From Akkermansiaceae bacterium (GTDB lineage Bacteria > Verrucomicrobiota > Verrucomicrobiia > Verrucomicrobiales > Akkermansiaceae), in NCBI GenBank assembly GCA_049632765.1, contig JBNACB010000006.1:53-64052 (forward strand): a stretch of DNA of 64,000 nucleotides, written 5' to 3'. Below are positions 24,017 through 40,285 of the stretch, piece after piece. The notes under the pieces are model-generated. The model was not told the DNA's origin and searched no databases. It saw only the letters and a program-made list of their open reading frames with translations. Made by a program: the position numbers and the translations under genes. Numbering within the stretch: the first letter of the stretch is position 1; each line of letters starts with the position of its first letter.

Positions 24017-25156
24017 TTAGGCCAGGTGTTTGGGAAAATCATGCACCCGCTCGCAGGCCACCTGCTCCATGACTTGCTGTAGCTGCCGCTTGAGCATAGT
24101 CAGGGTGTGGTCACCCCCGTTTTTACCGAGTGCACCGACTCCATACATAGGGGTGCGGCCCATGAAGGTGAAGGCGGCACCGGTGGCAAGCGCGGCAGCA
24201 ACATCAGGACCCGTGCGGATACCTGAATCCATCATGATCGTAATCTGGTCCTTGAACTCCGCGACGAGCTGAGCCAGAGGCACAATGGTAGATTGGCCGG
24301 TATCGAGCTGGCGACCGCCATGGTTGGATACAATGATACCATCAATGCCATTGCGCACGGCCTTCTCGCAGTCCTCGGGATTAACGATGCCCTTGATGAC
24401 AAGCTTGCCCTGCCACTTGTCGCGGATGGCCTTGATCCTGTCCTCAGTGAGTCTTCCAGAGAAAGTCTTGTTCATAAACATCCCCAGATGCTTCATGTTG
24501 AGACCCTTGGGAATATACTCCTTCATGGTTTTAAATTCAGGAGCTCCGGCGAAGAGCTGGCTAAAGGACCAGGTCGGGTGCGTGCACATCTGGAACACAT
24601 TGCGCAAGGTCATGCGTGGTGGAATGGACAGACCGTTTTTAATTTCCTTGGGCCGGTAAGCGAAAGTGGGCGTGTCAGCCAACAGAACCAGAACCTCGTT
24701 ACCAGCTGCCGCAGCACGGTCGAGCAGTTTGTCACGCAACTCATCCTCCGCCGGATGATATAGCTGGAACCATGCGTCACCCTCGGTGATCTCAGCGATC
24801 TTTTCAATACTGGCCGTACCCACCGTACTAAGGATGAAGGGAATGTTGTGCGCCTTGGCGGCAGCCGCGAGAATCTCGCAGGAATTTGGCCACATCAGAC
24901 CCTGAAGGCCGACAGGTGCGATCCCAAAAGGTGCATCGTAAGTTTTGCCAAATAGCTCTGTTTCCTGACTCGCCCCCTTGTAATCCCTGAGGTAGTAGGG
25001 CTTGAGCTGCACTTCGCGAATATCACTGGTATTGCGGCGAAGGTTGACCTCAGAGAAGCAACCTCCATCCAAATAATCGTAAGCAAAACCCGGCATGCGC
25101 CTTCTGGCCTTGGCCATCAGAGCCTCCACAGAGGGATAGTTTGAATTAAATGACAT
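24017..25156 (-). CDS. lldD: FMN-dependent alpha-hydroxy acid (L-lactate) dehydrogenase
   Basis: YDYLDGG, PFGIAP.G, WFQLY, LVIKGI, VSNHGGRQLD and DSGIR.G.D motifs. Confidence 0.85.
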   Translation of the reverse strand: MSFNSNYPSVEALMAKARRRMPGFAYDYLDGGCFSEVNLRRNTSDIREVQLKPYYLRDYKGASQETELFGKTYDAPFGIAPVGLQGLMWPNSCEILAAAAKAHNIPFILSTVGTASIEKIAEITEGDAWFQLYHPAEDELRDKLLDRAAAAGNEVLVLLADTPTFAYRPKEIKNGLSIPPRMTLRNVFQMCTHPTWSFSQLFAGAPEFKTMKEYIPKGLNMKHLGMFMNKTFSGRLTEDRIKAIRDKWQGKLVIKGIVNPEDCEKAVRNGIDGIIVSNHGGRQLDTGQSTIVPLAQLVAEFKDQITIMMDSGIRTGPDVAAALATGAAFTFMGRTPMYGVGALGKNGGDHTLTMLKRQLQQVMEQVACERVHDFPKHLA

Positions 25157-25213: not shown

Positions 25214-26998
25214 CTATCCATAGAGCGGGCCGTAATTTTCGCAAGCCCGGAAATCGGCACCCTCCAGTCCATCTGTGCCATGCGCGTTCCATGAGGATGG
25301 GCGGAAGATGCGATCCTCACTGACATTGTGCATATAAACCGGGATTCGCAGCATGGATGCCAAGGTGATGAGATCAGCACCAATGAGACCGTAGCTCATG
25401 ACACAGTGATTGGCTCCCCAGTTGTTCATGACCGTGTAGGTGTCGCGGAAGGCTCCCTTGCCAGTGATGGTTGGGCAGAACCATGTTGTTGGCCATGTCG
25501 GGTTGGTGCGTTCATCGAGAATGTTGTGGACGTCCTCGGGCAGTTCTACAGTAACGCCTTCAGCAATTTGCAGAGCAGGCCCCAGACCTTTGACAAGATT
25601 GAGGCGTGCGATCGTTGCCGGCATGCCCCCCTTGGTCTTGTATCGGGTGCTGAGTCCCCCTCCGGGGAAATATTCAGTGATGGATGGATGCCAGGTTGTG
25701 GCGTCCAGACAGGCCTGCATCTCTTCGTCGGTGATTTCCCAGTGAGGCTTCATGGCGGGTTTGCCGTCTATGCTCATCTGGCCAGTGCCATCAAGAGCAG
25801 CAGGTCCAGAGTTGATCAGATGCAGCAAACCGTCTGCGGCAGCACCTGTGAGCTCGTGGCCGGAAACACGCTTGACCGCATCGGGTGACCAGTAAGTGCG
25901 CAAGTCTGCAAATATCTGGGCAGTGTTGGTCAGCAAGTTGCCGAAGAGCATGGTAACGGCATTGAGAGCATCGTTCTCGGTGGCAAACTGATAGGGAGCG
26001 CGCTTGCCGTTCCAATCAAAAGAAGTCGTAAGGATGGCCTCCATGAAGTCGCCATTGGGATAGTGATCAGTCCACTGGCGCTGCCCCTGGAAACCGCCGC
26101 ATATCGCATTGCGGCCAAGTGCCTCTTCTCCATAACCCATGTCAGCAAGCTTGTCGTTGCCCACCATCAGGTCACGGGCGATAAGTGCCATCTTCACAGA
26201 TGTCTCCCACTCCTGATCAATGTGCTCACGAGAGCGCTGCGTCTCGGGTGAATTGTAGTCTTTGCCTTCCGGGCAGTGTTGCTTCACCCAGGCGAGGGCT
26301 TTTTCATACTCCTCGTGATCGTAGATACCCCGGTCAATCCTGCGTGCCACCTCCGTCATGTCGACAGCCTCCACCCTGATGCCAAGATACCCTTGGAAGA
26401 AGTCGGGATCCACCACCGAACCGGCAATACCCATTGAGGTTCCACCAAGTGACAGGTAGGACTTGCCACGCATCAGGGCAACCGAGATACCGGCCCGACA
26501 GAAGGCAAGAATCTTGTGTGCCACATCATCAGGAATGCTTGTGTCCGTTGATTCCATGACATCACGGCCATAGATTCCGAAAGCGGGAAGCCCTTTCTGA
26601 GTGTGCCCAGCAAGAGCTGCCGCCAGATATACCGCTCCAGGACGCTCCGTGCCATTGAAACCCCATACCGCTTTGGGCGTGTGGGGATCCATATCCATAG
26701 TCTCAGAGCCATAGCACCAGCAGGGAGTCACCGTCAGCGACACTCCCACATTTTCCTTTCTGAACTTGTCCGCACAGGCAGCTGCCTCAGCCACACCACC
26801 AATACAAGTATCCGCGATCACACACTGCACAGGAGAGCCATCAGGATAGCAGAGGTTTTCCGAGATATAGGCAGCCGTGGCCTTGGCCTGGTTCATCGTT
26901 TGGTCCTCCAAGGACTCTCGGACACCGCCAAGACGGCCATCGATGGTTGGACGTATGCCGATTTTCGGCATGTTGTCTTTATTGAATACGGTTTTCAT
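25214..26998 (-). CDS. fucI: L-fucose isomerase
   Basis: [67 protein letters not shown] and WGANH. Confidence 0.97.
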
Positions 26999-27049: not shown

Positions 27050-28522
27050 TCAGGCCTCGATGAGCTTGAGAAACTTCTGGTATGGTTCTTCCCAGTCCGC
27101 GGAGGACTCGGGAGTGTAGGTGAACGTGTCCATGGAAGCTTCCACTAATGCGCGCCCCGCAGTAATATCCTCTAAATCACCAGTCGCAACCATTTGTGTA
27201 ATAATATTTCCACAGGACGTTGCCTCGACAGGACCGGCGACCACCGGAATACCGAGCGCATCCGCCGTTGCCTGAGCCAAGAGCTCATTTTGTATGCCTC
27301 CACCACCTGCATGCAGTTTATCGAAGGTTCTGCCCGTTCCCCTCTCAAGGAATTCGATGACCTGTCGGTATTTGAGGGCCAGACTCTCCGTCGCGACGCG
27401 CAACAACTGACCCTTGCTCTTGGGCACGACCTGTCCGGTTCTCTCACAGAAATCCATGATTTTCTGCGGCATGTCACCCGGAGTTGCAAAAACACCATCA
27501 TTGGGATCGATGTAAGCCGTGTGCGGCTGAGCCTCCTCCGCCAGACGCGCCAGCTCGGCATAACTCATCTCCTCGCCATGCTCCGCCCAATAGCGGCGGC
27601 ATTCCTGGATGATCCAGAGACCAGAGACGTTGTGCAACAGGCGCGTCGTTTTGTTAACGCCTCCCTCGTTGGAAAGCCCAGCCTCAAGAGCTTCAGCAGA
27701 GACAACCGGCTTTTCTGACTCCACTCCGAGAATGGACCATGTACCTGATGAAAGCCACAATCCCCCCCGCTCCATGGGTAGGCCGGCTACAGCCGAGGCG
27801 GTATCGTGACCAGCGGAGGCCACCACCTTGACGTCATGAGAAATTCCTGCCTTTTCAGCCACTGCGTCTGTTAAAGGCCCCAACACAGTTCCAGAGGACA
27901 CAATGTTACCAAACATCTTGCGTGGCAGGCCGAGGGCATCAATCACATTCCATGCCCAGTCACGCTCCATCGGATTGTAGAGCTGGCTCGTGCTGGTCAC
28001 TGATCTCTCGTTGGCCTGTACCCCACTCAACCAATAAGCCAGAAGATCGGGAGTAAAGAGCAGGCGGTTGGCGATGTCAAAACAAGGGTTTCCCTTCACC
28101 GACTCGGCGAGCAAATGCAGGCTGGTATTGTAGAATGCAGGCTGCACACCAGTGCTGGCAAAAACATCCTCCATCGGGATGCGGGCATCCATTTCCTCCT
28201 GCATCCCCTCAATGCGGGGGTCACGATACTGTCGGTGACCACCGAGCAAGTTGCCCTGCTTGTCGAGCAATGCGCAATCACAACCCCAGGTATCGGTGCC
28301 TACGGATACGATCGCATCACCATATTTCTCGGCCGCTTTGTGCAGACCTTCCTGAATCGACTCGAACAACCCAATGGTATTCCAATAACAACCGCCATTG
28401 ATCTCGACACCATCGTTGGAAAATCGATGAACCTCCTCCAATTGGAGGGTGCTGCCATCATAAACACCGGCCACAAGGCGGCCAGATCCTGCACCGAGGT
28501 CAATTGCGATGTAAACTTGCAT
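27050..28522 (-). CDS. Rhamnulokinase-family FGGY kinase (probable L-fuculokinase here)
   Basis: IAIDLGAGSGR, GTDTWG.D, YRD.R, GHDTASAV, SSGTWS, SNEGG, GLWIIQECR and GPVEAT. It is co-oriented with fucI. Confidence 0.9.
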   Translation of the reverse strand: MQVYIAIDLGAGSGRLVAGVYDGSTLQLEEVHRFSNDGVEINGGCYWNTIGLFESIQEGLHKAAEKYGDAIVSVGTDTWGCDCALLDKQGNLLGGHRQYRDPRIEGMQEEMDARIPMEDVFASTGVQPAFYNTSLHLLAESVKGNPCFDIANRLLFTPDLLAYWLSGVQANERSVTSTSQLYNPMERDWAWNVIDALGLPRKMFGNIVSSGTVLGPLTDAVAEKAGISHDVKVVASAGHDTASAVAGLPMERGGLWLSSGTWSILGVESEKPVVSAEALEAGLSNEGGVNKTTRLLHNVSGLWIIQECRRYWAEHGEEMSYAELARLAEEAQPHTAYIDPNDGVFATPGDMPQKIMDFCERTGQVVPKSKGQLLRVATESLALKYRQVIEFLERGTGRTFDKLHAGGGGIQNELLAQATADALGIPVVAGPVEATSCGNIITQMVATGDLEDITAGRALVEASMDTFTYTPESSADWEEPYQKFLKLIEA

Positions 28523-28567: not shown

Positions 28568-29326
28568 TCAAGCTTTGATGATGTCCACGCCCATATTCTT
28601 CAAGGATTCCAGTATTCCAGGGTCCGCGTCCTTGGTCGTCACAAGAGTTGTAAGCTGAGAACACTCGGCAAAGAAGAAGGCGGAGCGAGCTCCTATTTTT
28701 GAATCATCTGCGAGCAAACAGACATCCTCGGCAGCGGCAATCACATGCTCTTTAAAAGCTGCCTGGCGCGAGTTGCCCTCACTCACACCCCTCTCAAGAT
28801 CCAGCCCGCTGCCCGAGAAAAACATGCGGTGGATGTTATAGCGATGGAGTGTTCGCTCTGCAACCAGCCCGATCATGGACCTGGAACGACGCTCAAACAA
28901 CCCACCCGTGCAAATCAAATCAATATTTTCAACCCCTGCAAGCGCCTCGACAACGTCCAGGGCATTGGTAATCACAGTGATGTGAAAGCTTGGTAAATAC
29001 TGGGTAATGGTCAGTGCCGTAGAGCTCGCATCAATGAAGATGGTCTCCCCCGGCTGAATTCTCGTGGCCGCCGCCTTGGCAACCGCACTCTTGGCATCGC
29101 GATTGATCAACTGTCTCTCAGTGAGGGAAAGTTCACGAATAACACGCTTGGAAGGGATGGCACCACCATGTGACCTCACCAGAAGGCCTTGCTGCTCAAG
29201 CTGCTCAAAATCCTTGCGGATCGTCTCGTCCGTGACATCAAGCTCCACAGCCATGTCCTTGGTCCTCAGGGATCCGCGATCCTTGAGCGCCTCGAGTATC
29301 TGATTGTGTCTTTCAGCCGCTAACAT
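28568..29326 (-). CDS. DeoR/GlpR-family transcriptional regulator
   Basis: MLAAERHNQIL HTH with VTDETIRKD..LE..GLL.RSHGGA; sensor domain with IFIDASST and VITN. Confidence 0.95.
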   Translation of the reverse strand: MLAAERHNQILEALKDRGSLRTKDMAVELDVTDETIRKDFEQLEQQGLLVRSHGGAIPSKRVIRELSLTERQLINRDAKSAVAKAAATRIQPGETIFIDASSTALTITQYLPSFHITVITNALDVVEALAGVENIDLICTGGLFERRSRSMIGLVAERTLHRYNIHRMFFSGSGLDLERGVSEGNSRQAAFKEHVIAAAEDVCLLADDSKIGARSAFFFAECSQLTTLVTTKDADPGILESLKNMGVDIIKA

Positions 29327-29428: not shown

Positions 29429-29467
29429 ACTATCATGCAAAAAACACCCCGTCATCCACAAAAATTT

Positions 29468-30148
29468 ATGTCGTCTCCTCAACAAAACAGCGTCCCCAGA
29501 GCAGTCATCGAACATATGGTACGGGAGCAGGTATACAAGGAAATGGGTCTTTCCCTGCCCGAACAAGCCAAGGCACCCAAGGGCCTCGTGGTGAATATCA
29601 GTGCCCGTCACTGCCATCTGACCCAGGAAGCGGTGGAGGTTCTTTTCGGGCCAGGTCACCAGCTCACACCGCACAAGTGGCTATATCAGGAAGGTGCATA
29701 CGCCGCCAAGGAATCCGTGACACTTATCGGACCTCGCAGCCGGGTCATTTCCAATTTGCGCATCCTCGGTCCTTGCCGTGACCTGAACCAGGTTGAGCTG
29801 GCATTCACCGACGCCATCTCCCTCGGCTTCGACATTCCCATCCGCATGTCGGGTGATGTGGCCGGAACCCCGGGCTGCATGCTGATGGGCCCTAACGGAT
29901 ATTTCAAAATGGACGAGGGCGTCATCCGCGCCCAGCCCCACGTGCACATGCACCCTGACGATGCCGCATTCTACGGAGTGAAGCACCTCGACACCATGAA
30001 AATGAAGGTTCACAGCCCTTGTTCGGTCACCTTCGACAACATCGTGGTCCGCGTTGACGAAAGCTTTAACCTGGAGGCCCACATCGACACCGATGAGGGC
30101 AACGCATGCGGCCTCCGCCCTGACACCTTCTGCGAGCTCATCAAGTGA
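29468..30148 (+). CDS. pduL: Phosphate propanoyltransferase PduL with N-terminal encapsulation-peptide-like helix
   Basis: VNISARHCHLT, LRILGP.R...QVEL..TD...LG...P.R.SG....TPG and AQPHVHM. Start placed at MSSPQQ. Confidence 0.93.
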   Translation: MSSPQQNSVPRAVIEHMVREQVYKEMGLSLPEQAKAPKGLVVNISARHCHLTQEAVEVLFGPGHQLTPHKWLYQEGAYAAKESVTLIGPRSRVISNLRILGPCRDLNQVELAFTDAISLGFDIPIRMSGDVAGTPGCMLMGPNGYFKMDEGVIRAQPHVHMHPDDAAFYGVKHLDTMKMKVHSPCSVTFDNIVVRVDESFNLEAHIDTDEGNACGLRPDTFCELIK

Positions 30149-30203: not shown

Positions 30204-30473
30204 ATGAGCAAAGCACTCGGAATGATTGAAACCAAAGGCTACGTCGGCAGCGTAGAGGCCGCGGATGCGATGGCCAAAGCCGCCACCGTTGACGTGACCA
30301 AACAAGTACAAATCGGAGCGGGATTTCTTACCATCCTCATCCAAGGAGACGTTGGCAGCGTCAAAGCTGCTGTTGACGCTGGAGCAGAAGCAGCCGGCCG
30401 CGTAGGCGAACTCGTTAGCGCCCACGTAATCGCCCGCCCTGCCCCTGAGCTCCTCAAACAATTTGATCTCTAA
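30204..30473 (+). CDS. BMC shell hexamer (BMC-H) 1
   Basis: ALGMIETKG...EAADAMAK...GDVGSVKAAVDAGA...HVIARP. Confidence 0.95.
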   Translation: MSKALGMIETKGYVGSVEAADAMAKAATVDVTKQVQIGAGFLTILIQGDVGSVKAAVDAGAEAAGRVGELVSAHVIARPAPELLKQFDL

Positions 30474-30517: not shown

Positions 30518-30796
30518 ATGGCTAAAAAAGCACTCGGAATTATTGAAGCAAAAGGGCTTGTCTCCCTGATCGAGGCATCAGACGCCGCCATCAAGGCAGC
30601 AGATGTCACCATGACTGGCTGGGACAAGATCGGCTCAGGCCTCGTCTGTGGATTCTTCACAGGTGACGTTGCCGCTGTCAAAGCTGGTGTTGACGCTGGT
30701 GCGGAAGCAGCTGCTCAGGTTGGCGAAGTCAACTCTGTGCTTGTTATTCCCCGCCCACACGAAGACCTCGGCCAAATGGGGCCTTGGATCGCCTAA
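30518..30796 (+). CDS. BMC shell hexamer (BMC-H) 2
   Basis: ALGIIEAKG...EASDAAIK...KIGSG...GDVAAVKAGVDAG...IPRPH. Confidence 0.95.
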   Translation: MAKKALGIIEAKGLVSLIEASDAAIKAADVTMTGWDKIGSGLVCGFFTGDVAAVKAGVDAGAEAAAQVGEVNSVLVIPRPHEDLGQMGPWIA

Positions 30797-30830: not shown

Positions 30831-32006
30831 ATGCACATCCTCATCGCCAACCTCGGATCCACATCCTTCAAATACCGCCTCTATGAGATGGACGGTAAGA
30901 ACGGGAATGTGATCGCCTCGGGCGGCTTTGAGCGTGTCACTGATTATGCAGATGTCATCAATCAGGCCCTGGCTGAACTTATCGACCAGGGTAATCTGAG
31001 TTCAACCAGCGACATTGATGCCGTTGGTTTTAAAACCGTGCTCGGTAAAGATCTGAGCGGTTGTGTGGATGCCGATGATCAAGTCATCAATGCGCTCGAG
31101 GGCTTCCGTGAGGTAGCCCCGGCGCATAATCCTCCATATGCCGAGGGTATTCGCCAATTTCGCCAAATCCTGCCCAATGCACGGCTGGTTGCTCTTTTCG
31201 AGACAGCCTTCTACCAGTGGATTCCCCAAGCAGCCTCGCGCTATGCCCTACCCCAATCCTGGCATGATGCAGGTATTCGCCGCTACGGATTCCACGGTGC
31301 CAGCCACAAATACGTTGCGGAACGCTCAGCCGAACTGATGGGCCGTGAGGACGTGGCTGAATCTGTGAGGGGTCTTTATGTCGATGGCCCAAAGGACATT
31401 TCCGGTGAGCCCTTGCGAGTAGTCTCATTCCATCTTGGCGGCAGCAGTTCTGTCACAGGTATCCGCAATGGTATCGCCATCGGTACAAGTATGGGTTTCT
31501 CGCCGCAGAGCGGGCTACCACAAAACAACCGTGTTGGCGATCTGGACTCTGGCGCCCTCCCCTACGCCACCAAGGCACTGGGCATCTCCATGGAGGAAGC
31601 GGAGCGTCAACTCACCAAGGAATCCGGCCTGCAAGGTGTATCCGGAGTCAGCAATGATCTGCGAGACATCTGCGATGCAGCCGATGACGGCAACAGTAAC
31701 GCACAACTTGCCTTGGACATGCTGGTGAACTCTGCACGTCACTGGGCCTCCAGCTACCTCTTCGATCTGGGAGGACTCGACACCCTCGTCTTCACAGCTG
31801 GGATTGGAGAAAACAACCCATGGCTCAGGACGGCAATCTGCGCCGGACTGGAAAACTTCGGCGTTGAAATTGATGAAGAAAAAAACGCCGCCTGCATGGC
31901 CGATGAGGCAATCATCAGCACTGACAGTTCCAAAGTTAAAATCATGGTGATCCCTGCCAACGAGGAACTCGTTCTCGCACGCGAGGTATACCGCAAAGTA
32001 AGCTGA
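30831..32006 (+). CDS. ackA: Acetate-kinase-family protein (BMC-associated, probable lactate/acyl-phosphate kinase)
   Basis: IANLGSTSFKY, RRYGFHG.SH, HLG, TSMGF.P, FTAGIGEN and IPANEE; several active-site positions differ from canonical AckA. Confidence 0.9.
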   Translation: MHILIANLGSTSFKYRLYEMDGKNGNVIASGGFERVTDYADVINQALAELIDQGNLSSTSDIDAVGFKTVLGKDLSGCVDADDQVINALEGFREVAPAHNPPYAEGIRQFRQILPNARLVALFETAFYQWIPQAASRYALPQSWHDAGIRRYGFHGASHKYVAERSAELMGREDVAESVRGLYVDGPKDISGEPLRVVSFHLGGSSSVTGIRNGIAIGTSMGFSPQSGLPQNNRVGDLDSGALPYATKALGISMEEAERQLTKESGLQGVSGVSNDLRDICDAADDGNSNAQLALDMLVNSARHWASSYLFDLGGLDTLVFTAGIGENNPWLRTAICAGLENFGVEIDEEKNAACMADEAIISTDSSKVKIMVIPANEELVLAREVYRKVS

Positions 32007-32085: not shown

Positions 32086-32379
32086 ATGGCTATACAAGCA
32101 ATAGGAATACTCGAAACCCGCGGCCTTGCAGGCCTTGTCAATGGCACTGACGCCATGCTCAAAGCTGCAAATGTAAAGCTCGCAGGCCCCATGCGCCAAA
32201 TCGGAAGCGCTATGTGCAACGTTGTCGTCGAAGGTGACGTCGCTGCCGTCAAAGCTGCTGTCGATGCTGGTGCCTCCGCTGCAGAACAAATTGGTGAAGT
32301 CCTCAGTGCTCACGTCATCGCACGTCCTGACGCCTCCACCTCTGACGTGCTTCCCAAGCGCGCTGCTGCCAAGAAGTAA
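32086..32379 (+). CDS. BMC shell hexamer (BMC-H) 3 with basic C-terminal tail
   Basis: AIGILETRG...TDAMLKAANV...GDVAAVKAAVDAG...HVIARP, then tail KRAAAKK. Confidence 0.95.
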   Translation: MAIQAIGILETRGLAGLVNGTDAMLKAANVKLAGPMRQIGSAMCNVVVEGDVAAVKAAVDAGASAAEQIGEVLSAHVIARPDASTSDVLPKRAAAKK

Positions 32380-32418: not shown

Positions 32419-32470
32419 GTAACTGGCGCTGATGCAGCGTCTCGTTTCATTCATCATCCAGACCACAACC

Positions 32471-32779
32471 ATGTTTCTTGCAGAAGTTATCGGACAAGTC
32501 GTCGCAACCAAAAAGGACGACAGCATGCAGGGCAAAAAGCTCTTGTTGCTTCGCCCCCAGCTTGTAGATGAAAACAATCCCGCTGCGTTCCGCAATGGCG
32601 TTAATACCATCGTTGCCGTGGACAATGTAGGTGCTGGCGAGGGAGATCTGGTGATGTTTTGTCAGGGCAGCTCTGCTCGTCAGGCTGCCGGCCTCAAAAT
32701 GTTGCCCGTGGATGCCGCCGTTGTCGCCATTATCGACAGCGTGGATGTCCTGGGCAAAAAAATATTCAAGAGTAACTAA
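32471..32779 (+). CDS. BMC shell pentamer (BMC-P, EutN/CcmL) 1
   Basis: MFLAEVIGQVVATKK...KLLL...VAVDNVGAGEGD.V....GSSAR...PVDAAVVAIID. Confidence 0.95.
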   Translation: MFLAEVIGQVVATKKDDSMQGKKLLLLRPQLVDENNPAAFRNGVNTIVAVDNVGAGEGDLVMFCQGSSARQAAGLKMLPVDAAVVAIIDSVDVLGKKIFKSN

Positions 32780-32802: not shown

Positions 32803-34293
32803 GTGAATACCATCGATCAAGATACCCTTCGCAATGTTGTTGAAAACGTTATTCAGCAACTTGGCAATCCGCCAGCTGCAGCATCAAGCGCACCTGCCTC
32901 CACCCCACAACCCGCGGCTACACCATCTACTGATGATTGCGCCAAGGCACCTGGTATTGGCGGCAAGCATGGTGTGTTCGCCCATGTCTGCCAAGCCTCT
33001 GAAGCTGCGCACAATGCCTTCCTCAAGCTCAAGGAGCTCGGTATTGAAGGCCGTAAGCGCGTGATCGAAATCGTCAAGGAAACCTGCATGGCAAATGCGG
33101 AGCCATGGGGCAAGTTCGAGCTTGAAGAAACGAAGATTGGCCGCCTCGATCATAAAATCGAAAAACTCCAAATCGTGGGACACGTTCCCGGAGTTGAGTG
33201 GTTGGCGCCCAACGCAATGAGTGGTGACAACGGCATCACTCTTGAGGAATACGCACCCTTCGGTGTGATTGGCGCCATTCTGCCAGTTACTCACTCTGTT
33301 CCCACGCTGACAGGAAACGTCATCAGCATGGTTGCAGCAGGTAATGCGATTGTGTTCAATCCTCATCCGGGTGGTGCCAAGAGTGCGGTAATGGCAACTC
33401 GGGCCTACAACCAGGCAATCGAACGCGAGCTCGGCATTGACAACCTGATCTGCACGATTGAGGAGCCTACCATTGAAACCTTTGAGAAGATCTGCAAGAA
33501 CCAGCACATTGCCCTCATGGCCATCACCGGTGGCCCGGCTGTTGTTGAGGCTGCTATGAAGTCCGGAAAGCGCTCCGTCTGCGCCGGCCCCGGAAACCCG
33601 GTTGTCGTGGTCGATGAATCCGCCAATCTGGACAACGCGGCCACCAACATCATTGCTGGCGCCGCATTTGATAACAACCTTCTCTGCATTGGCGAAAAAT
33701 CCGTCTTTGTGGTCGATTCAGTCTTCGAGCAATTTATGCAAGCCATGGAGCGGGCTGGAGCCACACGTTTGAATGCGGAACAGGTTGACAAGCTTACCGG
33801 CGTTGCTTTTGACATCACCACGGGAGCCGGTGGCTGTGCCCAGGCGGCTCTCAACCGCGACCTCATTGGCGTTGACGCCTCCATTCTTGCCGGGCACGCA
33901 GGAATCAGCTCCCCTGCCAAGACCGACCTGGTCTTCGGGGAAACTGATGCTGACCATCCCTTTGTGCAAAAGGAGCAGATGATGCCCATGCTGCCCATCG
34001 TTCGTGTATCCGACTTTAAAACAGCCGTTGAGCTCGCCAAGGATGCAGAGCACGGATACCGCCACTCTGCGGTCATCCACTCCACCAACGTGGATCACAT
34101 GACCCACATGGCCAAGGAGATGGACACCACCATTTTTGTCAAAAACGGTTCATCTGTTGCCGGACTCGGCCTGGGAGGTGAGGGATACCTCAGCTACTCC
34201 ATTGCCACCACCACGGGCGAGGGCATTACCACCCCCAAGACATTCACTCGCATCCGCCGCTGCGTCATGGTCGAAAACCTGCGCATCATCTAA
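32803..34293 (+). CDS. CoA-acylating aldehyde dehydrogenase (EutE/PduP family) with N-terminal encapsulation peptide
   Basis: APFGVIGAI.P.T, FNPHP, TGGPAVV, AGPGNP.VVVDE, SFDNN-like AFDNNLLCIGEK, EQMMP.LP, EHGYRHSA and IATTTGEG. The N-terminal helix QDTLRNVVENVIQQL is followed by a P/A linker. Confidence 0.95.
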   Translation: MNTIDQDTLRNVVENVIQQLGNPPAAASSAPASTPQPAATPSTDDCAKAPGIGGKHGVFAHVCQASEAAHNAFLKLKELGIEGRKRVIEIVKETCMANAEPWGKFELEETKIGRLDHKIEKLQIVGHVPGVEWLAPNAMSGDNGITLEEYAPFGVIGAILPVTHSVPTLTGNVISMVAAGNAIVFNPHPGGAKSAVMATRAYNQAIERELGIDNLICTIEEPTIETFEKICKNQHIALMAITGGPAVVEAAMKSGKRSVCAGPGNPVVVVDESANLDNAATNIIAGAAFDNNLLCIGEKSVFVVDSVFEQFMQAMERAGATRLNAEQVDKLTGVAFDITTGAGGCAQAALNRDLIGVDASILAGHAGISSPAKTDLVFGETDADHPFVQKEQMMPMLPIVRVSDFKTAVELAKDAEHGYRHSAVIHSTNVDHMTHMAKEMDTTIFVKNGSSVAGLGLGGEGYLSYSIATTTGEGITTPKTFTRIRRCVMVENLRII

Positions 34294-34316: not shown

Positions 34317-34571
34317 ATGCTTCACTGCCAGGTTGTAGGAAATGCAGTTGCCACCGCGAAACACCACTCGCTGGATGGCTTCAAGATGCTGCTTTGCCAA
34401 CAGCTCGATGCAGAGCAAAAGCCCTCGGGGACGCCATTTATCGCCATTGACCTATTCGGCGCCGGTATGCACCAGAAGGTCTTTGTCAGCACGGACGGTA
34501 TAGGGGCACGTGACATTGTTCACGATGAAAACTCCCCTGTCCGCATGTTCATCCAAGGAATCATCGACTAA
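34317..34571 (+). CDS. BMC shell pentamer (BMC-P) 2
   Basis: M..CQVVGNAVAT.K...L.G.K.L...IAID.FGAG....V......AR.......P....I.GIID. Confidence 0.9.
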   Translation: MLHCQVVGNAVATAKHHSLDGFKMLLCQQLDAEQKPSGTPFIAIDLFGAGMHQKVFVSTDGIGARDIVHDENSPVRMFIQGIID

Positions 34572-34576
34572 ATCAT

Positions 34577-34882
34577 ATGCGAATTGGCCATGTCATTGGA
34601 AAAGTTACAACCAACGTCCAGGAGGAAGCCTTCCGGGGTGGCCGCTGGCTGGTTGTCAATCCTGTCGATACCGAACAAATCAATACCTGCATTGAAAAGC
34701 AGCCCAGCCTCACCAAGCAACCATCTCTTGTTATCTACGACAATGTCGGTGCTGGAGTGGGCGATATCGTCGGCTTTGTCGAAGGTGCCGAGGCTACAGC
34801 TCCCTTTGCAGGCCCCACACCGATCGATGCGATCAGCCTAGCCATCTTTGACACCCTCAAATACGTAGCACCAGCTCAATAA
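34577..34882 (+). CDS. BMC shell pentamer (BMC-P) 3
   Basis: MRIGHVIGKVT...G.RWL...VIYDNVGAGVGD.V...EG.EA..PF...TPIDA....I.D. Confidence 0.9.
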   Translation: MRIGHVIGKVTTNVQEEAFRGGRWLVVNPVDTEQINTCIEKQPSLTKQPSLVIYDNVGAGVGDIVGFVEGAEATAPFAGPTPIDAISLAIFDTLKYVAPAQ

Positions 34883-34897
34883 TCACACTCTCAAACC

Positions 34898-36013
34898 ATG
34901 AAGAAAGTTTACACGGCAAAAGACATCAAGGACCTCATTTCACAGGGCGTTTCTCTCGACAGCATTCCAGCCGGAACCATTCTGACGCCATCAGCCAAAG
35001 ATGCCATCAAAGATTTTGGGGGAGGCGCCACCACGCGCCAGGCAGCTGCATCAGGCAAGACTTCAGACCGTTTCCCGCCGCTGCCTCCCGGAGTTCCCAC
35101 TGTTCCGCCCGAGCCAGTGGTTCCCAGCATGGAATATGACTGGGTAGAGGGTGGAGATCCGACTAATCCGGAGGAAATCCAGCGCTTCTTCCACTCCCCC
35201 GAGATCATGAAGCTCAAGGATGAGATGATCCGCACGGCACGTAAAATGTGGCAACGTAACATGGTCGACGGCAATGGCGGTAACATCACCGTTCGTGTCG
35301 GTGATAACCTCGTGCTCTGCACTCCTACTCTCCGCTCCAAGGGGGAGGTCATGGCAGATGAAATCGCTCTTATTGACCTGGATGGCAATCAGAAGGCTGG
35401 CTGGCGCAAGCGCACAAGTGAGGCCAATACTCACCTTGCCATCATGAAGGTTCAGCCCAAGGCAAAGAGTGTTATCCACGGCCATCCACCCTACTCCACG
35501 GCTTTCGCGGTTGCTAATGTAGAGCCGCCGACTTGCCTTTGCTCAGAAGTCGAGGTCTTCACTGGTGCGATCCGCCTGGTGGAATACCACACACCCGGTA
35601 GCAAGGAAATCTGCGATGCCGTGGCAAAAATCGGCAAGGACAATCCTGCTATCCTACTCGCAAACCACGGTGTCATGGCATGGGGCAGTGATGTCGAGGA
35701 TGCTTACTGGAAAATGGAGAATATGGAAACTGCTTGCCAGACCATCTGGGTTGCGAGCCAACTTAATGGCGGCAGGCTTCCAACGATTCCATCAGACAAA
35801 ATGCGTGAGATCTTCGATATCCGCAAATCCATTGGCATGGAGGACCCTCGTGTGGACCTGAAGGAATGCGAGCTATGCCAGAATGATAACTTCCACCCCG
35901 GTGCATATTGTGAAGTCGCCCCTGCCACAAAGGACGTCGGCTCCTATCTCAACCCTGAAGCGGAGAAAATTGTCAAACAGCTCACCGACGAAATCGCCGG
36001 CAAGATCTCCTAA
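34898..36013 (+). CDS. Class II (Zn) aldolase A, fuculose-1-phosphate aldolase family, with N-terminal extension and C-terminal encapsulation-peptide-like helix
   Basis: GNGGNITVR, TPT, RTSE, HGHPP and NHGV (catalytic Glu and Zn-His triad); C-terminal EAEKIVKQLTDEIAGKIS. Confidence 0.92.
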   Translation: MKKVYTAKDIKDLISQGVSLDSIPAGTILTPSAKDAIKDFGGGATTRQAAASGKTSDRFPPLPPGVPTVPPEPVVPSMEYDWVEGGDPTNPEEIQRFFHSPEIMKLKDEMIRTARKMWQRNMVDGNGGNITVRVGDNLVLCTPTLRSKGEVMADEIALIDLDGNQKAGWRKRTSEANTHLAIMKVQPKAKSVIHGHPPYSTAFAVANVEPPTCLCSEVEVFTGAIRLVEYHTPGSKEICDAVAKIGKDNPAILLANHGVMAWGSDVEDAYWKMENMETACQTIWVASQLNGGRLPTIPSDKMREIFDIRKSIGMEDPRVDLKECELCQNDNFHPGAYCEVAPATKDVGSYLNPEAEKIVKQLTDEIAGKIS

Positions 36014-36056
36014 AAAGTGCTCTTTCGGAAGCAAACATCGACCCAGTTAGCAACTC

Positions 36057-37034
36057 ATGAAACAGGTATACACAGCCAAGCAAATTGAAGACTTGATAGC
36101 AGGGGGCCAGGGTGTGAGCTCGTTACCAACGGATGCAGTTCTCACTCCATCTGCCAAGGACTACCTCAAGGAGTTGGAAAACCCAGGCTTCGGCACACAA
36201 AGACGGGAGCGTGAATTTGAAGAACCCAGCCTTCCTGACTACGAATATAAATGGACACCCGGTAGCGACCCCAAAACCCAGGGTGAAATCCTCGACTTCT
36301 TTTATTCTCCAGAGATCCATGTGCTCAAGGAGCGCATGTGCGATCTCGGCAAGAGGATGTGGCAGCGCAACTACACCGACGGCAATGGCGGCAACATGAC
36401 CATTCGTGTCGGCGACAACCTGGTTCTCTGCACCCCCACCCTCATCTGCAAGGGCTTTATGAAGCCAGAGGACATGTGTCTGGTGGATCTTGACGGCAAA
36501 CAACTTGCCGGCAAGCGCCCTCGCACGAGTGAGTGCATGACCCACCTTGCCATCATGAAGCGCCAGCCCAAGTGCAAGGCTGTCTGCCACTCTCACCCAC
36601 CCCATGCCACGGCCTTTGCTGTTGCCGGTGTGCGTCCTCCCCTCTGCATGATTCCGGAGGCTGACGTCTTTCTCGGCGAGATTGGCATGGCTCCCTATCG
36701 CACCCCCGGAACACCGGATGTTGCTGATATTGTCGGTGAAACAGGCGTAAAACATATGTCCGTGCTCATGCTTAACCACGGGGTTATCACATGGGGAGAC
36801 CATATTGAGGAAGCCTACTGGCGCATGGAAAACACCGAAGCTCTTTGCCGCACTGTCTGGGTCGCCACCCAGCTCAACAACGGAAAAATGCTCACCATGA
36901 CTGATGAGCAGGAGCGGGATCTCATCGAAATCCGCAAAGCCCTCGGTATGGAGGATCACCGCGAACACCTCCCCAATGACCAGCTCTGTAACAACGATCA
37001 ATTTAGACCCGGTGTTTCCTGTAACTGCCAATAG
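36057..37034 (+). CDS. Class II (Zn) aldolase B, paralog of aldolase A lacking the C-terminal helix
   Basis: GNGGNMTIR, TPT, RTSE, HSHPP and NHGV; ends at ...FRPGVSCNCQ. Confidence 0.92.
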   Translation: MKQVYTAKQIEDLIAGGQGVSSLPTDAVLTPSAKDYLKELENPGFGTQRREREFEEPSLPDYEYKWTPGSDPKTQGEILDFFYSPEIHVLKERMCDLGKRMWQRNYTDGNGGNMTIRVGDNLVLCTPTLICKGFMKPEDMCLVDLDGKQLAGKRPRTSECMTHLAIMKRQPKCKAVCHSHPPHATAFAVAGVRPPLCMIPEADVFLGEIGMAPYRTPGTPDVADIVGETGVKHMSVLMLNHGVITWGDHIEEAYWRMENTEALCRTVWVATQLNNGKMLTMTDEQERDLIEIRKALGMEDHREHLPNDQLCNNDQFRPGVSCNCQ

Positions 37035-37090
37035 TCAGGCAAACACTTCCGATCTAACGAATATATAAACAACCAACCTAATAGAATACC

Positions 37091-38020
37091 ATGAAAGCAA
37101 CTATCATAGGCGGTGGCGGCCGTGTAGGATCCAATGCCGCTATTTGTCTCCAGTGCGCCGGTGTCGTCTCGGAAATTCAAATTCTGGATGCCAACCAGGA
37201 TCTCGCGGACGGTGAAGCCCTCGATCTTTTACACGGTGCCTCCTGCCTGCATGACCAGCGCATTTACTCAGGTGACTACAACCGTGCAGCAGACTCCGAC
37301 ATTTTCATCATTACCGCCGGCCTGCGCCGCAAGCCTGACGAAAGCCGTCTGGATCTCATCAACCGCAACGTCGGCCTGTTTTCACAGATTCTCAACAGTA
37401 TCAAAACCGCGGGAATGAAGCAGGATGCCATCGTATTCGTTGTTTCCAACCCTGTAGACATTCTTACGCATCTTGCCGTCAGCTTCCTCGGCCTCCCCCC
37501 TGCCCAGGTGATCGGACTTGGCACCATGCTTGATACCGCACGCTTCCGCTCACTCATTGCCAATGACCTCGATCTTGCTCCTACTCAGGTCAAGGCCCTC
37601 ATCCTCGGCGAGCACGGTGACACCATGCTTCCCGTTTGGTCATCAGCCACTGTGGGTGGTCTGCCACTGACCGGAGTGAAAGGCTGTGATGCCAACTACC
37701 AGCGCCAGATCTTTGAGCGCACCAAGAAAAGTGGTGCCGAAGTCATTGCCCGCAAGGGTGGAGCCGGCTGGGCGGTTGGTGCTACCATTGCAGAAACCGT
37801 GCACGCCATAGCTCTCGACAAGAAGCAGCTCCTGCCCGTCTCCAGCCTCCAGAATGGCTGCTACGGCCTCAAGGATGTCTGCCTGAGTGTTCCCACCATC
37901 GTAGGACGCAGCGGTGCTGAGAAGCATGTAGAGATCGAACTCTGGCCCAAGGAAAAGCAAGCTCTGCAGGCTTCGGCACGCGCTCTCAAAGAGATGCTCA
38001 AGAACGTGGCCTCTGTCTAG
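37091..38020 (+). CDS. L-lactate/malate dehydrogenase family NAD-dependent oxidoreductase
   Basis: GGGGRVG, ILD, TAGLRRKPDESRLDL..RN, VSNPVD, GTMLDTARF and GEHGD. Confidence 0.93.
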   Translation: MKATIIGGGGRVGSNAAICLQCAGVVSEIQILDANQDLADGEALDLLHGASCLHDQRIYSGDYNRAADSDIFIITAGLRRKPDESRLDLINRNVGLFSQILNSIKTAGMKQDAIVFVVSNPVDILTHLAVSFLGLPPAQVIGLGTMLDTARFRSLIANDLDLAPTQVKALILGEHGDTMLPVWSSATVGGLPLTGVKGCDANYQRQIFERTKKSGAEVIARKGGAGWAVGATIAETVHAIALDKKQLLPVSSLQNGCYGLKDVCLSVPTIVGRSGAEKHVEIELWPKEKQALQASARALKEMLKNVASV

Positions 38021-38115: not shown

Positions 38116-39606
38116 TTACTCTGCAGCCTTTCTGCGGTTCCAGCAGAGCAGGCCATAGCCAGCGATAACAATAAAGCAAAGCACAGGCAGATAGAACGAT
38201 CCCCGGGTCGCGGTTGTTCCCATGAAGCCATCCATATCGAGAATCTGACCCTGCAGGCGGGGCATGAAAGCTCCACCAACAATGGCAAAGATCAGTCCTG
38301 CAGATCCCAGCTTGGCATCCTCACCGACACCATCGAGTGCCAGACCATAGATAGTCGGGAACATCAATGACATGCAGGCGGAGATCGCAATCAGCGAATA
38401 AAGTCCAGCCATACCCTGAAGGTAGATGGCTCCCAAGGTGCAGCCAATGCCGGCAAGACTCAGGACAAAAAGCAATCTTCCGGGCGAAACATACTTGAGG
38501 AAGAAAGTGCAAATAAAACGACTACAAAGGAAAATAACCATCGCGAGAATGTTATGGTTCTGCGCGGTTGCCTTGTCGATACCGAGCTCGTTCTCAGCAT
38601 ACTGGATGATAAAGGTCCAGCACATGATCTGTGCACCCACATAGAAGGTTTGAGCGACTACGCCACCCACATAGCGTGGATTACTGAACAAGCGACCGAC
38701 TGTCCTGCCGAAATGAAGGTCGTGGAGGTCTCCCTTCGGGCTGGTGTCGGGCATTTTTGTAACGGCAAAAAGCAGCATTACACCAATGACGACAAAACCA
38801 ATCACCATATAAGGTAAGGACACGATCTTTAAATCATGTTGTTGCAGCTCGGCGTGGGTCTTGCCCTGGAAGCTCTCAATTTTACCATCCTTGAAATCAA
38901 CAAGGGCATTAGAAGCCACATCCTTGGCATCAGGACCAAGATTTGCCACATAGGCCTTCACATTCGGATCGTTGGTGCGCTCACGCTCCTTGGATTTAAG
39001 CATCGGCAAGATGTCCAACTCTTCTCTTTGTTCAGCTGCAGGCTGAAGGTCTGCATAGAAACCGTTTACATCACTTTTGAAGTCCTCCACTTCAATGGTG
39101 GAGAGAATGACAGTGCCGGCAATGAACATGCCCGTGAGTGAGCCCATCGGGTTAAATGCCTGGGCAAAGTTGAGCCGCCGGGTGGCGGTTTCCGCTGAAC
39201 CCATGGAAAGAATATAGGGATTCGCAGTGGTTTCAAGGAAGGCAAGACCAAAGGTCAGGATATAAAGGGCAATAATAAAGAGGTTGAAGTTAGCACCGGA
39301 TGCTGCGGGGATCGACAATAACGCACCCGCGGCATATAGAAGTAAGCCCACGATGATACCCGATTTGTAGGAAAACTTACGAATGAAAATGGCAGCTGGA
39401 AGCGCCATGGTTGCGTAACCTCCATAAAATGCCATTTGCACCCATGTGCTTTGGGCATTGTCGATAACGAAGACGTCTTTGAAGACCGCCACTAATGGGT
39501 TGGTGACATCATTGGCAAAGCCCCAGAGGGCAAAGAGACTGGTTACTAGAATAAAGGGGAGAAGGAATTTCTTCTCAACGACGGCGCTTGGTTTAATGGC
39601 TGACAT
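38116..39606 (-). CDS. fucP: L-fucose:H+ symporter (MFS)
   Basis: PFILVTSLFALWGFAND, Q.AFYGGY..MA.PA, LETTANPY, RRLNFAQAFNP.G, FYVGAQIMCW and SLMFPTIY. Confidence 0.93.
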   Translation of the reverse strand: MSAIKPSAVVEKKFLLPFILVTSLFALWGFANDVTNPLVAVFKDVFVIDNAQSTWVQMAFYGGYATMALPAAIFIRKFSYKSGIIVGLLLYAAGALLSIPAASGANFNLFIIALYILTFGLAFLETTANPYILSMGSAETATRRLNFAQAFNPMGSLTGMFIAGTVILSTIEVEDFKSDVNGFYADLQPAAEQREELDILPMLKSKERERTNDPNVKAYVANLGPDAKDVASNALVDFKDGKIESFQGKTHAELQQHDLKIVSLPYMVIGFVVIGVMLLFAVTKMPDTSPKGDLHDLHFGRTVGRLFSNPRYVGGVVAQTFYVGAQIMCWTFIIQYAENELGIDKATAQNHNILAMVIFLCSRFICTFFLKYVSPGRLLFVLSLAGIGCTLGAIYLQGMAGLYSLIAISACMSLMFPTIYGLALDGVGEDAKLGSAGLIFAIVGGAFMPRLQGQILDMDGFMGTTATRGSFYLPVLCFIVIAGYGLLCWNRRKAAE

Positions 39607-39795: not shown

Positions 39796-40227
39796 CTAAA
39801 CTGGAGTTACACCCTTTTTGAGGATGATATTGGCGTACTTGTTCACGTCCCCAGTGGCCACAACGGCATGAGCCTTCTGCACCCGCTCATAGAAGGCAAA
39901 GCGCTCGAGTCTTGAAATCTTCGGATTAAGCTCGCTGTGGCGCTCAATGGCTGCGGCATATGAACCCTCGACCTTGGGATCCAGACTGTCCCCTTCCACA
40001 GCCTCCATGGTGATCACAGGAGCCGGGTCATAGGCATCGAGCTCAAACAAAGGCAAAATAGCGTCCAGCATATCCGGCACACTCAGGCCATCAGCACGAA
40101 TCACCGTATCGTTAAACTGGTGACCAGGGAAATGACCGTCCGCAAGGACGAGCTCCTCGCCATGGCCCATGCGGCACATCACAGCCAGCAACTCCGGAGA
40201 CAAGAGGGGTGAGATTCCTTTTAACAT
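39796..40227 (-). CDS. fucU: L-fucose mutarotase (RbsD/FucU family)
   Basis: [15 protein letters not shown]...[22 protein letters not shown] and [10 protein letters not shown]. Confidence 0.93.
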
Positions 40228-40285
40228 AAACCGGATACTAGGAAAGCGGCTGTTGCATGCCAGCCAATTTTTCATAACGGTTAAG

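Follow-up and report, generated by a model that had tools for sequence, protein, structure and literature searches.

A rare tandem pair of class II aldolases, one with and one without a predicted encapsulation peptide, in a PVM-type metabolosome operon of an Akkermansiaceae bacterium

Microcompartments of the Planctomycetes-Verrucomicrobia (PVM) type are central to the use of fucose- and rhamnose-rich algal polysaccharides by marine Verrucomicrobia, and one of the closest described systems, that of Planctomyces limnophilus, has in its published outline L-fucose and L-rhamnose as predicted substrates, degraded via lactaldehyde (Erbilgin et al. 2014; locus type in Axen et al. 2014, PMC4207490). 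Here we describe a locus with the same predicted substrates that carries two adjacent class II aldolase genes, aldolases A and B, in the DNA of an Akkermansiaceae bacterium (assembly GCA_049632765.1, contig JBNACB010000006.1, positions 53 to 64,052 of the forward strand). This whole stretch of 64,000 nucleotides is called the window below, and coordinates are counted from its first base; the region from 29.4 to 38.0 kb is a PVM-type metabolosome operon on the + strand, predicted to serve L-fucose and L-rhamnose. The source genome is an Akkermansiaceae metagenome-assembled genome (MAG) of 2.17 Mb that is 90% complete; its nearest public relatives are labelled Oceaniferula sp. (NCBI name), and the setting is marine.

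What is understood of cargo packaging in PVM microcompartments so far rests largely on inference from encapsulation peptide (EP) sequences. A C-terminal EP has been described on 21 of 23 microcompartment class II aldolases, behind linkers of 23-81 residues (Aussignargues et al. 2015, PMC4594438), and in Salmonella helices H1 and H2 of EutQ (residues 9-41) bind the Eut shell and helices H3 and H4 bind the EPs of cargo (Sci Adv 2025, PMC12487888). No account of a two-aldolase PVM locus was found in the searchable literature, and a study of marine Akkermansiaceae associated with blooms refers to "an aldolase", in the singular (PMC8857213).

The locus is thus a natural experiment, in which one enzyme family is maintained with and without an EP, side by side and under selection. 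Our leading explanation, in which confidence and doubt are about evenly matched, is that B most likely adds the cleavage of L-rhamnulose 1-phosphate and stays associated with the organelle, as a working add-on beside the resident, tagged A.

Two aldolases and one encapsulation peptide

The two genes and their parts lie as follows.
34898-36013, + strand: aldolase A, an A-type PVM class II aldolase of 371 aa (PF00596, E=3.8e-46)
34898-35023, + strand: A residues 1-42, N-terminal EutQ-like module (profile comparison with EutQ, NCBIfam, AlphaFold2)
35069-35128, + strand: A residues 58-77, RFPPLPPGVPTVPPEPVVPS, proline-rich segment specific to the A type
35222-35743, + strand: A residues 109-282, Aldolase_II catalytic domain (Pfam match)
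35951-36010, + strand: A residues 352-371, NPEAEKIVKQLTDEIAGKIS, predicted C-terminal EP (AlphaFold2 helix, conserved motif)
36014-36056, no strand: spacer between A and B, 43 bp; a scan found no terminator-like or promoter-like site on the + strand
36057-37034, + strand: aldolase B, a canonical-lineage PVM class II aldolase of 325 aa with neither linker nor EP (PF00596, E=1.2e-45)
36057-36182, + strand: B residues 1-42, the EutQ-like N-terminal module, kept in B (N-module profile score of 69 bits)
37002-37034, + strand: C-terminus of B, FRPGVSCNCQ and stop, the truncation point (comparison with B orthologues and EP-bearing relatives)
37035-37090, no strand: spacer between B and the next gene, 56 bp; read directly, it holds no remnant of linker or EP coding sequence

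The two proteins are 49% identical over about 340 residues, and both match the Aldolase_II family PF00596 well above its cut-off of 22.2 bits (A, 157.7; B, 156.1). The core sequence quoted in the initial annotation is present in each, as DGNGGNITVRVGDNLVLCTPTL in A and DGNGGNMTIRVGDNLVLCTPTL in B. Alignment with Escherichia coli FucA shows that N29, T43, S72, E73, H92, H94 and H155 are kept in both, so that each enzyme retains the zinc-binding histidine triad and the catalytic glutamate (E73, H92, H94, H155), and the description of the pair as two intact, adjacent class II aldolases holds.

The ends of the two proteins differ. B stops at ...FRPGVSCNCQ, and A runs 33 residues beyond this point to finish in NPEAEKIVKQLTDEIAGKIS. 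AlphaFold2 models, built with alignments of 90 (A) and 86 (B) sequences and with mean confidence (pLDDT) of 87.8 and 90.9, place a helix at residues 353-370 of A (pLDDT 84-91) after a low-confidence linker at about 330-350, and B has no equivalent, in agreement with the initial annotation that only A has such a helix. Its location for the tail, 35951-36013, is also correct, although the span comprises N352-S371 plus the stop codon, and hence 20 residues and not the 18 quoted. The resemblance that it drew to the N-terminal helix of the aldehyde dehydrogenase (AldDH) is in keeping with hydrophobic moments of 0.43 for the A tail and 0.42 for the AldDH helix. The tail motif (D/N)PEAE.(L/I/V)V..(L/I/V)T(D/E)(Q/E)I is conserved family-wide, with E356 and T363 invariant among 90 sequences. 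A therefore has the form of an EP-bearing enzyme, an amphipathic C-terminal helix of about 12-18 residues behind a poorly conserved linker, and B does not. The tail of A belongs to the published class of microcompartment aldolase EPs and the tag itself is not new; its role in targeting is predicted.

All eight B orthologues examined stop 2-6 residues past F(R/K)PGV, the motif with which the conserved core ends, with two types of end within the clade, ...PGV(S/P/V)CN.. and ...PGV(S/A)L, whereas the relatives P0126, P0127, P0128 and P0081 extend past this motif into linker and EP. No tandem locus has more than 56 bp between B and the dehydrogenase gene (range 39-56 bp), which indicates that the linker and EP coding sequence was deleted and not merely ended by a stop codon. 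When tails were scored by a relaxed motif and by eye in the best 80 species-representative loci, an EP was present in 79 of 82 complete aldolase open reading frames (ORFs); the three without one are all B orthologues, and every one of them lies directly downstream of an A-type gene. A further truncated relative of metagenomic origin, P0125 (328 aa), likewise lies directly downstream of another aldolase. Fourteen of the 31 genomes of the genus show the order of A followed by a tail-less B, as do three species-representative loci and one metagenome contig, and the asymmetry is therefore neither chance nor an assembly artefact. Since the B clade is monophyletic, the loss of the EP may represent one or two events.

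Both proteins open with a module of about 40 residues, MK.VYTAK.I.DLI..G....LP....LTPSAKD.LK., to which Pfam gives no match even at E=10. NCBIfam returns weak matches to the N-terminus of EutQ (positions 1-42; E=0.008, far under the cut-off) and to TIGR02536 (E=0.001). N-terminal sequences of aldolases, 198 of them distinct, were combined into a profile that scores 17.2 bits against residues 2-35 of E. coli EutQ (p=2e-7 for a single comparison), and its best match among the 20,936 ORFs of the source genome is 12.8 bits. In the AlphaFold2 model of A the module forms strand, helix (7-15), strand and helix (31-41) at pLDDT 92-95, and B has the same fold at about 90; in both, the two short helices are followed by a stretch predicted to be disordered. 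Mean pairwise identity within the module is 74% among B orthologues and 72% among those of A, against 43% and 24% respectively in the adjacent linkers. Module-bearing aldolases co-occur with BMC-H shell genes in 52 of 54 genomes of the Akkermansiaceae sample, and BMC-H is absent from the 17 genomes of genus g3 whose aldolase has no module.

Because the module is conserved in B as it is in A, and because it co-occurs with BMC-H, these data argue that B is still associated with the organelle, presumably through binding of the shell. They bear directly on a different explanation, that loss of the EP freed B into the cytosol, where part of the fuculose 1-phosphate or rhamnulose 1-phosphate would be cleaved outside the shell and the lactaldehyde either used by cytosolic enzymes or admitted to the shell later. 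B does lack the only type of targeting signal experimentally established for this enzyme class, and an LldD-like flavin mononucleotide (FMN) dehydrogenase gene beside fucI suggests a lactate route outside the shell operon. We nonetheless consider a cytosolic B unlikely. Free-living homologues of FucA have nothing that corresponds to the module, and in Akkermansiaceae it is found only in genomes with microcompartments; as a possible EP-independent route to the shell, which the initial annotation of the pair left out of account, it weakens this option. B keeps its place within the shell operon of every tandem locus, flanked by A and the dehydrogenase gene, and releasing lactaldehyde outside the shell would run against the purpose generally accepted for the organelle.

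Distribution, origins and maintenance of the pair

Genomes were sampled from the Akkermansiaceae (151), from across the Verrucomicrobiota (401) and from the genus of the window (31). About 54 of the Akkermansiaceae genomes have a microcompartment-type aldolase, and in seven of them, all belonging to the window's genus, a second copy lies immediately downstream. Among the 401 Verrucomicrobiota genomes, about 50 of which have such an aldolase, no tandem pair was found besides that of the source genome. A single aldolase is present in 77 of the 80 species-representative loci, which include those of Haloferula, Luteolibacter, Roseibacillus, Opitutaceae, Puniceicoccaceae, Pelagicoccus and a Kiritimatiellae MAG, and the three with two are all Oceaniferula/Akkermansiaceae. 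Within the genus, 14 genomes have A and B, five have A alone and 12 have neither. The pair is thus rare and confined to one subclade of one genus (Oceaniferula), and the statement in the initial annotation that canonical PVM loci carry one aldolase was accurate. Separately, a protein record annotated as partial, P0053, fills its 1311-base contig with a product of 437 aa, most of which can be matched to A and to B alike; it could reflect two incomplete tandem aldolases joined in one reading, or a fault of assembly.

Sequence identities and trees place A and B in separate lineages. B is 61-64% identical to the single-copy PVM aldolases of other genera, and A about 50%. In the aldolase tree, which is unrooted and is read here only in unrooted terms, the A-type enzymes form a separate clade with 100% support that also holds sequences of Sulfuriroseicoccus and of MAGs labelled Luteolibacter. 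The B clade is nested among the canonical, EP-bearing single-copy PVM aldolases, nearest to P0127 and P0128 and then to P0126 and P0081; these neighbours share 70-74% identity with B and, at 369-376 aa, run on through a linker to finish in ...DPEAE.LVQ.LTDQI..., and two of them are the sole aldolase of otherwise standard PVM loci. Recent tandem duplication is ruled out by these identities and trees: the genes represent two deep aldolase lineages, and B is the canonical type minus its tail.

When ten other proteins of the locus were concatenated, the resulting tree united every A-bearing locus in one group (100%); the tandem loci form a clade within it (95%), and the loci of P0126 and P0127 branch outside it. 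A therefore follows the backbone of the locus, and B is either a one-time acquisition from the canonical lineage or the survivor of an older pair. In an observation of its own, a metagenomic PVM locus (L025, 420-2310) has a single EP-bearing aldolase of the B lineage, and divergently upstream a PduS-like gene (RnfC_N, Complex1_51K, Fer4) and a 183-aa BMC-domain protein, both of which are missing from the window's locus.

The two types also differ at fixed positions that flank the catalytic residues (FucA numbering): 45, where the A type has R and the canonical type I or V; 97, Y against H; and 112-114, LCS against MIP. B carries the canonical residues at all of these. Just ahead of the core, the proline-rich segment RFPPLPPGVPTVPPEP(I/V)VPS is near-invariant in 18 A-type sequences and missing from canonical PVM aldolases, B included; its mean pairwise identity is 90%, against 24% in the preceding linker, and it is modelled at pLDDT 87-93. 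The segment may be an interaction motif.

That B has lost its tag only where an A-type gene sits immediately upstream might be explained by mixed tetramers, in which the EPs of A would bring B into the lumen, and the carriage of untagged cargo by tagged partners is an accepted notion in the microcompartment field (PMC4594438, PMC12487888). The 43 bp between the genes, which are probably co-translated from one mRNA, would favour it too. The two subunits are nevertheless only 49% identical and come from deeply separated lineages; in many genomes an A-type enzyme works without a partner, and no feature specific to the pair is seen in the A type. The type-specific fixed differences at FucA positions 112-114 also count against mixed tetramers, these positions lying at the subunit interface of the E. 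coli FucA structure. On balance we regard this explanation as improbable.

Pairwise dN/dS in the closest pairs of B orthologues is 0.016-0.03 at dS of about 1, comparable to the neighbouring dehydrogenase gene; A, compared with close orthologues, gives 0.03-0.04, above B. Such low values at this divergence exclude a decaying remnant, and B is, as judged from substitution patterns, a working gene under strong long-term purifying selection and not a relic. This bears on the proposal that B is the former resident, made redundant by the arrival of A and now decaying from loss of its tail toward deletion. A-only loci do occur in the same genus and in a sister genus, and the approximately unbiased (AU) test is compatible with vertical retention of B. 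Purifying selection after truncation, evident at saturated synonymous divergence (dS at least 1), together with the intact catalytic residues of B, makes replacement in progress very improbable, and the selection data largely refute it. On the locus backbone tree a single gain of B is as parsimonious as two losses, and its co-occurrence with L-rhamnose isomerase, described below, suggests a retained function.

Rhamnose isomerase and a possible division of substrates

L-Rhamnose isomerase (RhaA, PF06134) is encoded in 11 of the 14 B-bearing genomes of the genus, the three exceptions being MAGs that are 83-87% complete. It is absent from all five A-only genomes of the window's genus and from the four A-only genomes of a second genus (0/9 A-only overall); of about 40 genomes whose one aldolase is canonical, 11 have it. 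Every sampled genome with both a PVM locus and RhaA has an aldolase of the canonical lineage, either single or as B, and none is A-only (one-sided Fisher tests without phylogenetic correction: p=0.005 for the genus, p=0.015 for the family).

The rhamnose cluster of the source genome lies outside the window, at about 3900-10400 of contig C55. Beside RhaA, which scores over its equivalog cut-off, the cluster encodes a RhaT-like symporter, an AraC-type regulator, a sulfatase and an arabinose-isomerase-like protein, but neither a kinase nor an aldolase. The only other PF00596 gene of the genome is araD, adjoining a ribulokinase gene, and A and B are consequently the sole candidates for cleavage of rhamnulose 1-phosphate. 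The division of substrates raised in the initial annotation gains support from the co-occurrence of B with RhaA; its further option, D-ribulose 1-phosphate, does not, the third class II member being this ribulokinase-associated AraD.

As a separate matter, a pair-bearing relative (genome G139, contig C1; locus L109, 13513-15240) encodes a two-domain BMC shell protein of 215 aa about 6.5 kb from RhaA, adjoining a lyase of the dihydrodipicolinate synthase (DHDPS) family and an alpha-L-fucosidase; it is possible that this is a satellite shell locus in a polysaccharide-utilisation region.

We infer from these data that the pair divides its substrates. In the scheme that we favour, A is the resident signature enzyme of the lineage, probably directed at fuculose 1-phosphate, and is built of EutQ-like N-module, variable linker, conserved proline-rich segment, catalytic core, linker and C-terminal EP. 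B derives from the canonical PVM lineage, having been added to or retained in a single subclade, where it lost the linker and EP, about 45 residues, and kept the catalytic residues and the N-module. One RhaB-like kinase may phosphorylate both L-fuculose, formed by FucI, and L-rhamnulose, formed by RhaA encoded elsewhere; A would then cleave fuculose 1-phosphate, and B would supply or greatly improve cleavage of rhamnulose 1-phosphate, both yielding L-lactaldehyde for the encapsulated route of AldDH, PduL and kinase. We propose that an EP on B would be dispensable because A tetramers, AldDH and PduL already provide EP-mediated condensation of cargo, and that B might reach the organelle through its N-module, through association with A, or through both.

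Several observations weigh against this scheme. The co-occurrence of RhaA and B may be one event of shared ancestry and not a repeated association, since the tandem loci are monophyletic. Many genomes that lack RhaA have a single canonical aldolase, which shows that this type is not confined to rhamnose, and Planctomyces limnophilus reportedly uses one aldolase for both sugars. Neither A nor B reaches any NCBIfam equivalog cut-off for FucA or RhaD (best FucA-type scores of 84-111 bits against cut-offs of 250-400; RhaD scores of 38-63 bits against 170-401), and their specificity is thus not assignable from sequence. The likeness of the N-module to EutQ is weak, at 15-17 bits. The association of EP loss with tandem context is striking but not statistically replicated, and the AU test, with the EP-bearing relatives of B constrained to a clade excluding B, gave p=0.137, which does not separate transfer from vertical retention.

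A broader and more tentative proposal, which we consider possible but doubtful, is that PVM aldolases are two-handled scaffolds, in which an N-module like EutQ H1/H2 would grip the shell and a C-terminal EP would grip cargo; B would then be a natural EP deletion, preserved over a long period, whose N-module suffices for encapsulation. Were this so, the signature enzyme would do the linker job that EutQ does in Eut organelles, the N-module would be a second, EP-independent signal for targeting to metabolosomes, and a lineage could have bolted an additional substrate-specific aldolase, for rhamnulose 1-phosphate, onto an existing organelle. The locus allows the N-module to be tried as an independent targeting or shell-binding signal, and bears on whether untagged cargo rides with tagged paralogues and on whether the A type has narrowed to fuculose 1-phosphate, making a second aldolase necessary for rhamnose. 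Any such outcome would be useful for the engineering of synthetic microcompartments and for inferring sugar use from metagenomes.

The surrounding operon and comparison with known systems

The remaining genes of the operon and its flanks are as follows.
24017-25156, - strand: LldD-like FMN dehydrogenase (NCBIfam)
25214-26998, - strand: L-fucose isomerase FucI (NCBIfam, 1058 bits, over cut-off)
27050-28522, - strand: RhaB-like sugar kinase (NCBIfam, 397 bits as rhamnulokinase against 140 as fuculokinase, both under cut-offs)
28568-29326, - strand: DeoR regulator, divergent from the operon (NCBIfam)
29435-30148, + strand: PduL (Pfam match)
30204-30473 and 30518-30796, + strand: two BMC-H genes (Pfam)
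30831-32006, + strand: acetate-kinase homologue (Acetate_kinase Pfam recorded on homologous genes of related loci)
32086-32379, + strand: third BMC-H gene (Pfam)
32432-32779, + strand: BMC-P gene (Pfam)
32803-34293, + strand: AldDH, acylating aldehyde dehydrogenase (Pfam)
34317-34571 and 34577-34882, + strand: two BMC-P genes (Pfam)
37091-38020, + strand: lactate/malate dehydrogenase (LDH/MDH) family dehydrogenase, the final gene of the operon (Ldh_1_N and Ldh_1_C)
38116-39606, - strand: FucP permease (NCBIfam equivalog, over cut-off)
39796-40275, - strand: FucU mutarotase (NCBIfam equivalog, over cut-off)

Three BMC-H (PF00936) and three BMC-P (PF03319) shell genes thus cluster with a complete PVM enzyme set, the PF00596 aldolase being accompanied by AldDH, PduL, an acetate-kinase homologue, an LDH/MDH-family dehydrogenase and a DeoR regulator, and the gene order of the operon is identical in 23 related loci. 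A scan of the operon for promoters and terminators gave counts at or below shuffled expectation, with none between A and B, and A and B are inferred to be co-transcribed.

The RhaB-like kinase probably phosphorylates L-fuculose, and perhaps both ketoses. We considered the kinase as a clue to substrate and rejected it, as it is encoded equally in related, A-only loci of genomes that have no RhaA. The dehydrogenase scores 300.3 bits against the L-LDH equivalog, slightly under the cut-off of 303.55, and 287.8 bits against the malate dehydrogenase subfamily, slightly over its cut-off of 283, so that its sequence is compatible with either substrate.

Among known systems, E. coli FucA and RhaD share with A and B the fold family PF00596, the zinc-binding histidines, the catalytic glutamate and the expected products, dihydroxyacetone phosphate and L-lactaldehyde. 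They are only about 27% identical to the pair, however, and have no N-terminal module, no pre-core segment of about 35 residues and no EP; FucA residues Y113, F131, F206 and Y209 are replaced in A and B, which leaves specificity unreadable from this comparison. Residues 2-35 of EutQ align with residues 2-35 of the aldolases (KK.ITA.DI....G......TP.A), and in Salmonella EutQ, as in A and B, the module stands at the extreme N-terminus of a microcompartment-associated protein with a flexible linker after it (PMC12487888). In EutQ it precedes the EP-binding helices H3 and H4 and a cupin domain, whereas the PVM module precedes an aldolase, which in A carries an EP of its own; the likeness is weak, and shell binding, presumed for the PVM module, has been shown only for Salmonella EutQ (PMC12487888). 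The tail of A, in which a linker of low conservation leads into a helix of about 18 residues, is like the EPs described by Aussignargues et al. 2015 (PMC4594438), and B departs from that norm as a PVM aldolase without one; for the two EP-less cases in that study (Anaerobaculum mobile and Ruminococcus torques), pairing with a tagged paralogue is not reported there.

The locus as a whole resembles the PVM locus of P. limnophilus, which in its published outline shares with the window PduL, three BMC-H, three BMC-P, AldDH, an acetate-kinase homologue, a class II aldolase, an LDH/MDH-family dehydrogenase and a DeoR regulator (Erbilgin et al. 2014; Axen et al. 2014, PMC4207490). As outlined there, that locus has one aldolase and the window has two, the first a divergent A-type enzyme with a proline-rich insert and the second a canonical enzyme without linker or EP. 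The arrangement described here is therefore a real, rare form of the known PVM microcompartment and not a new kind of system.

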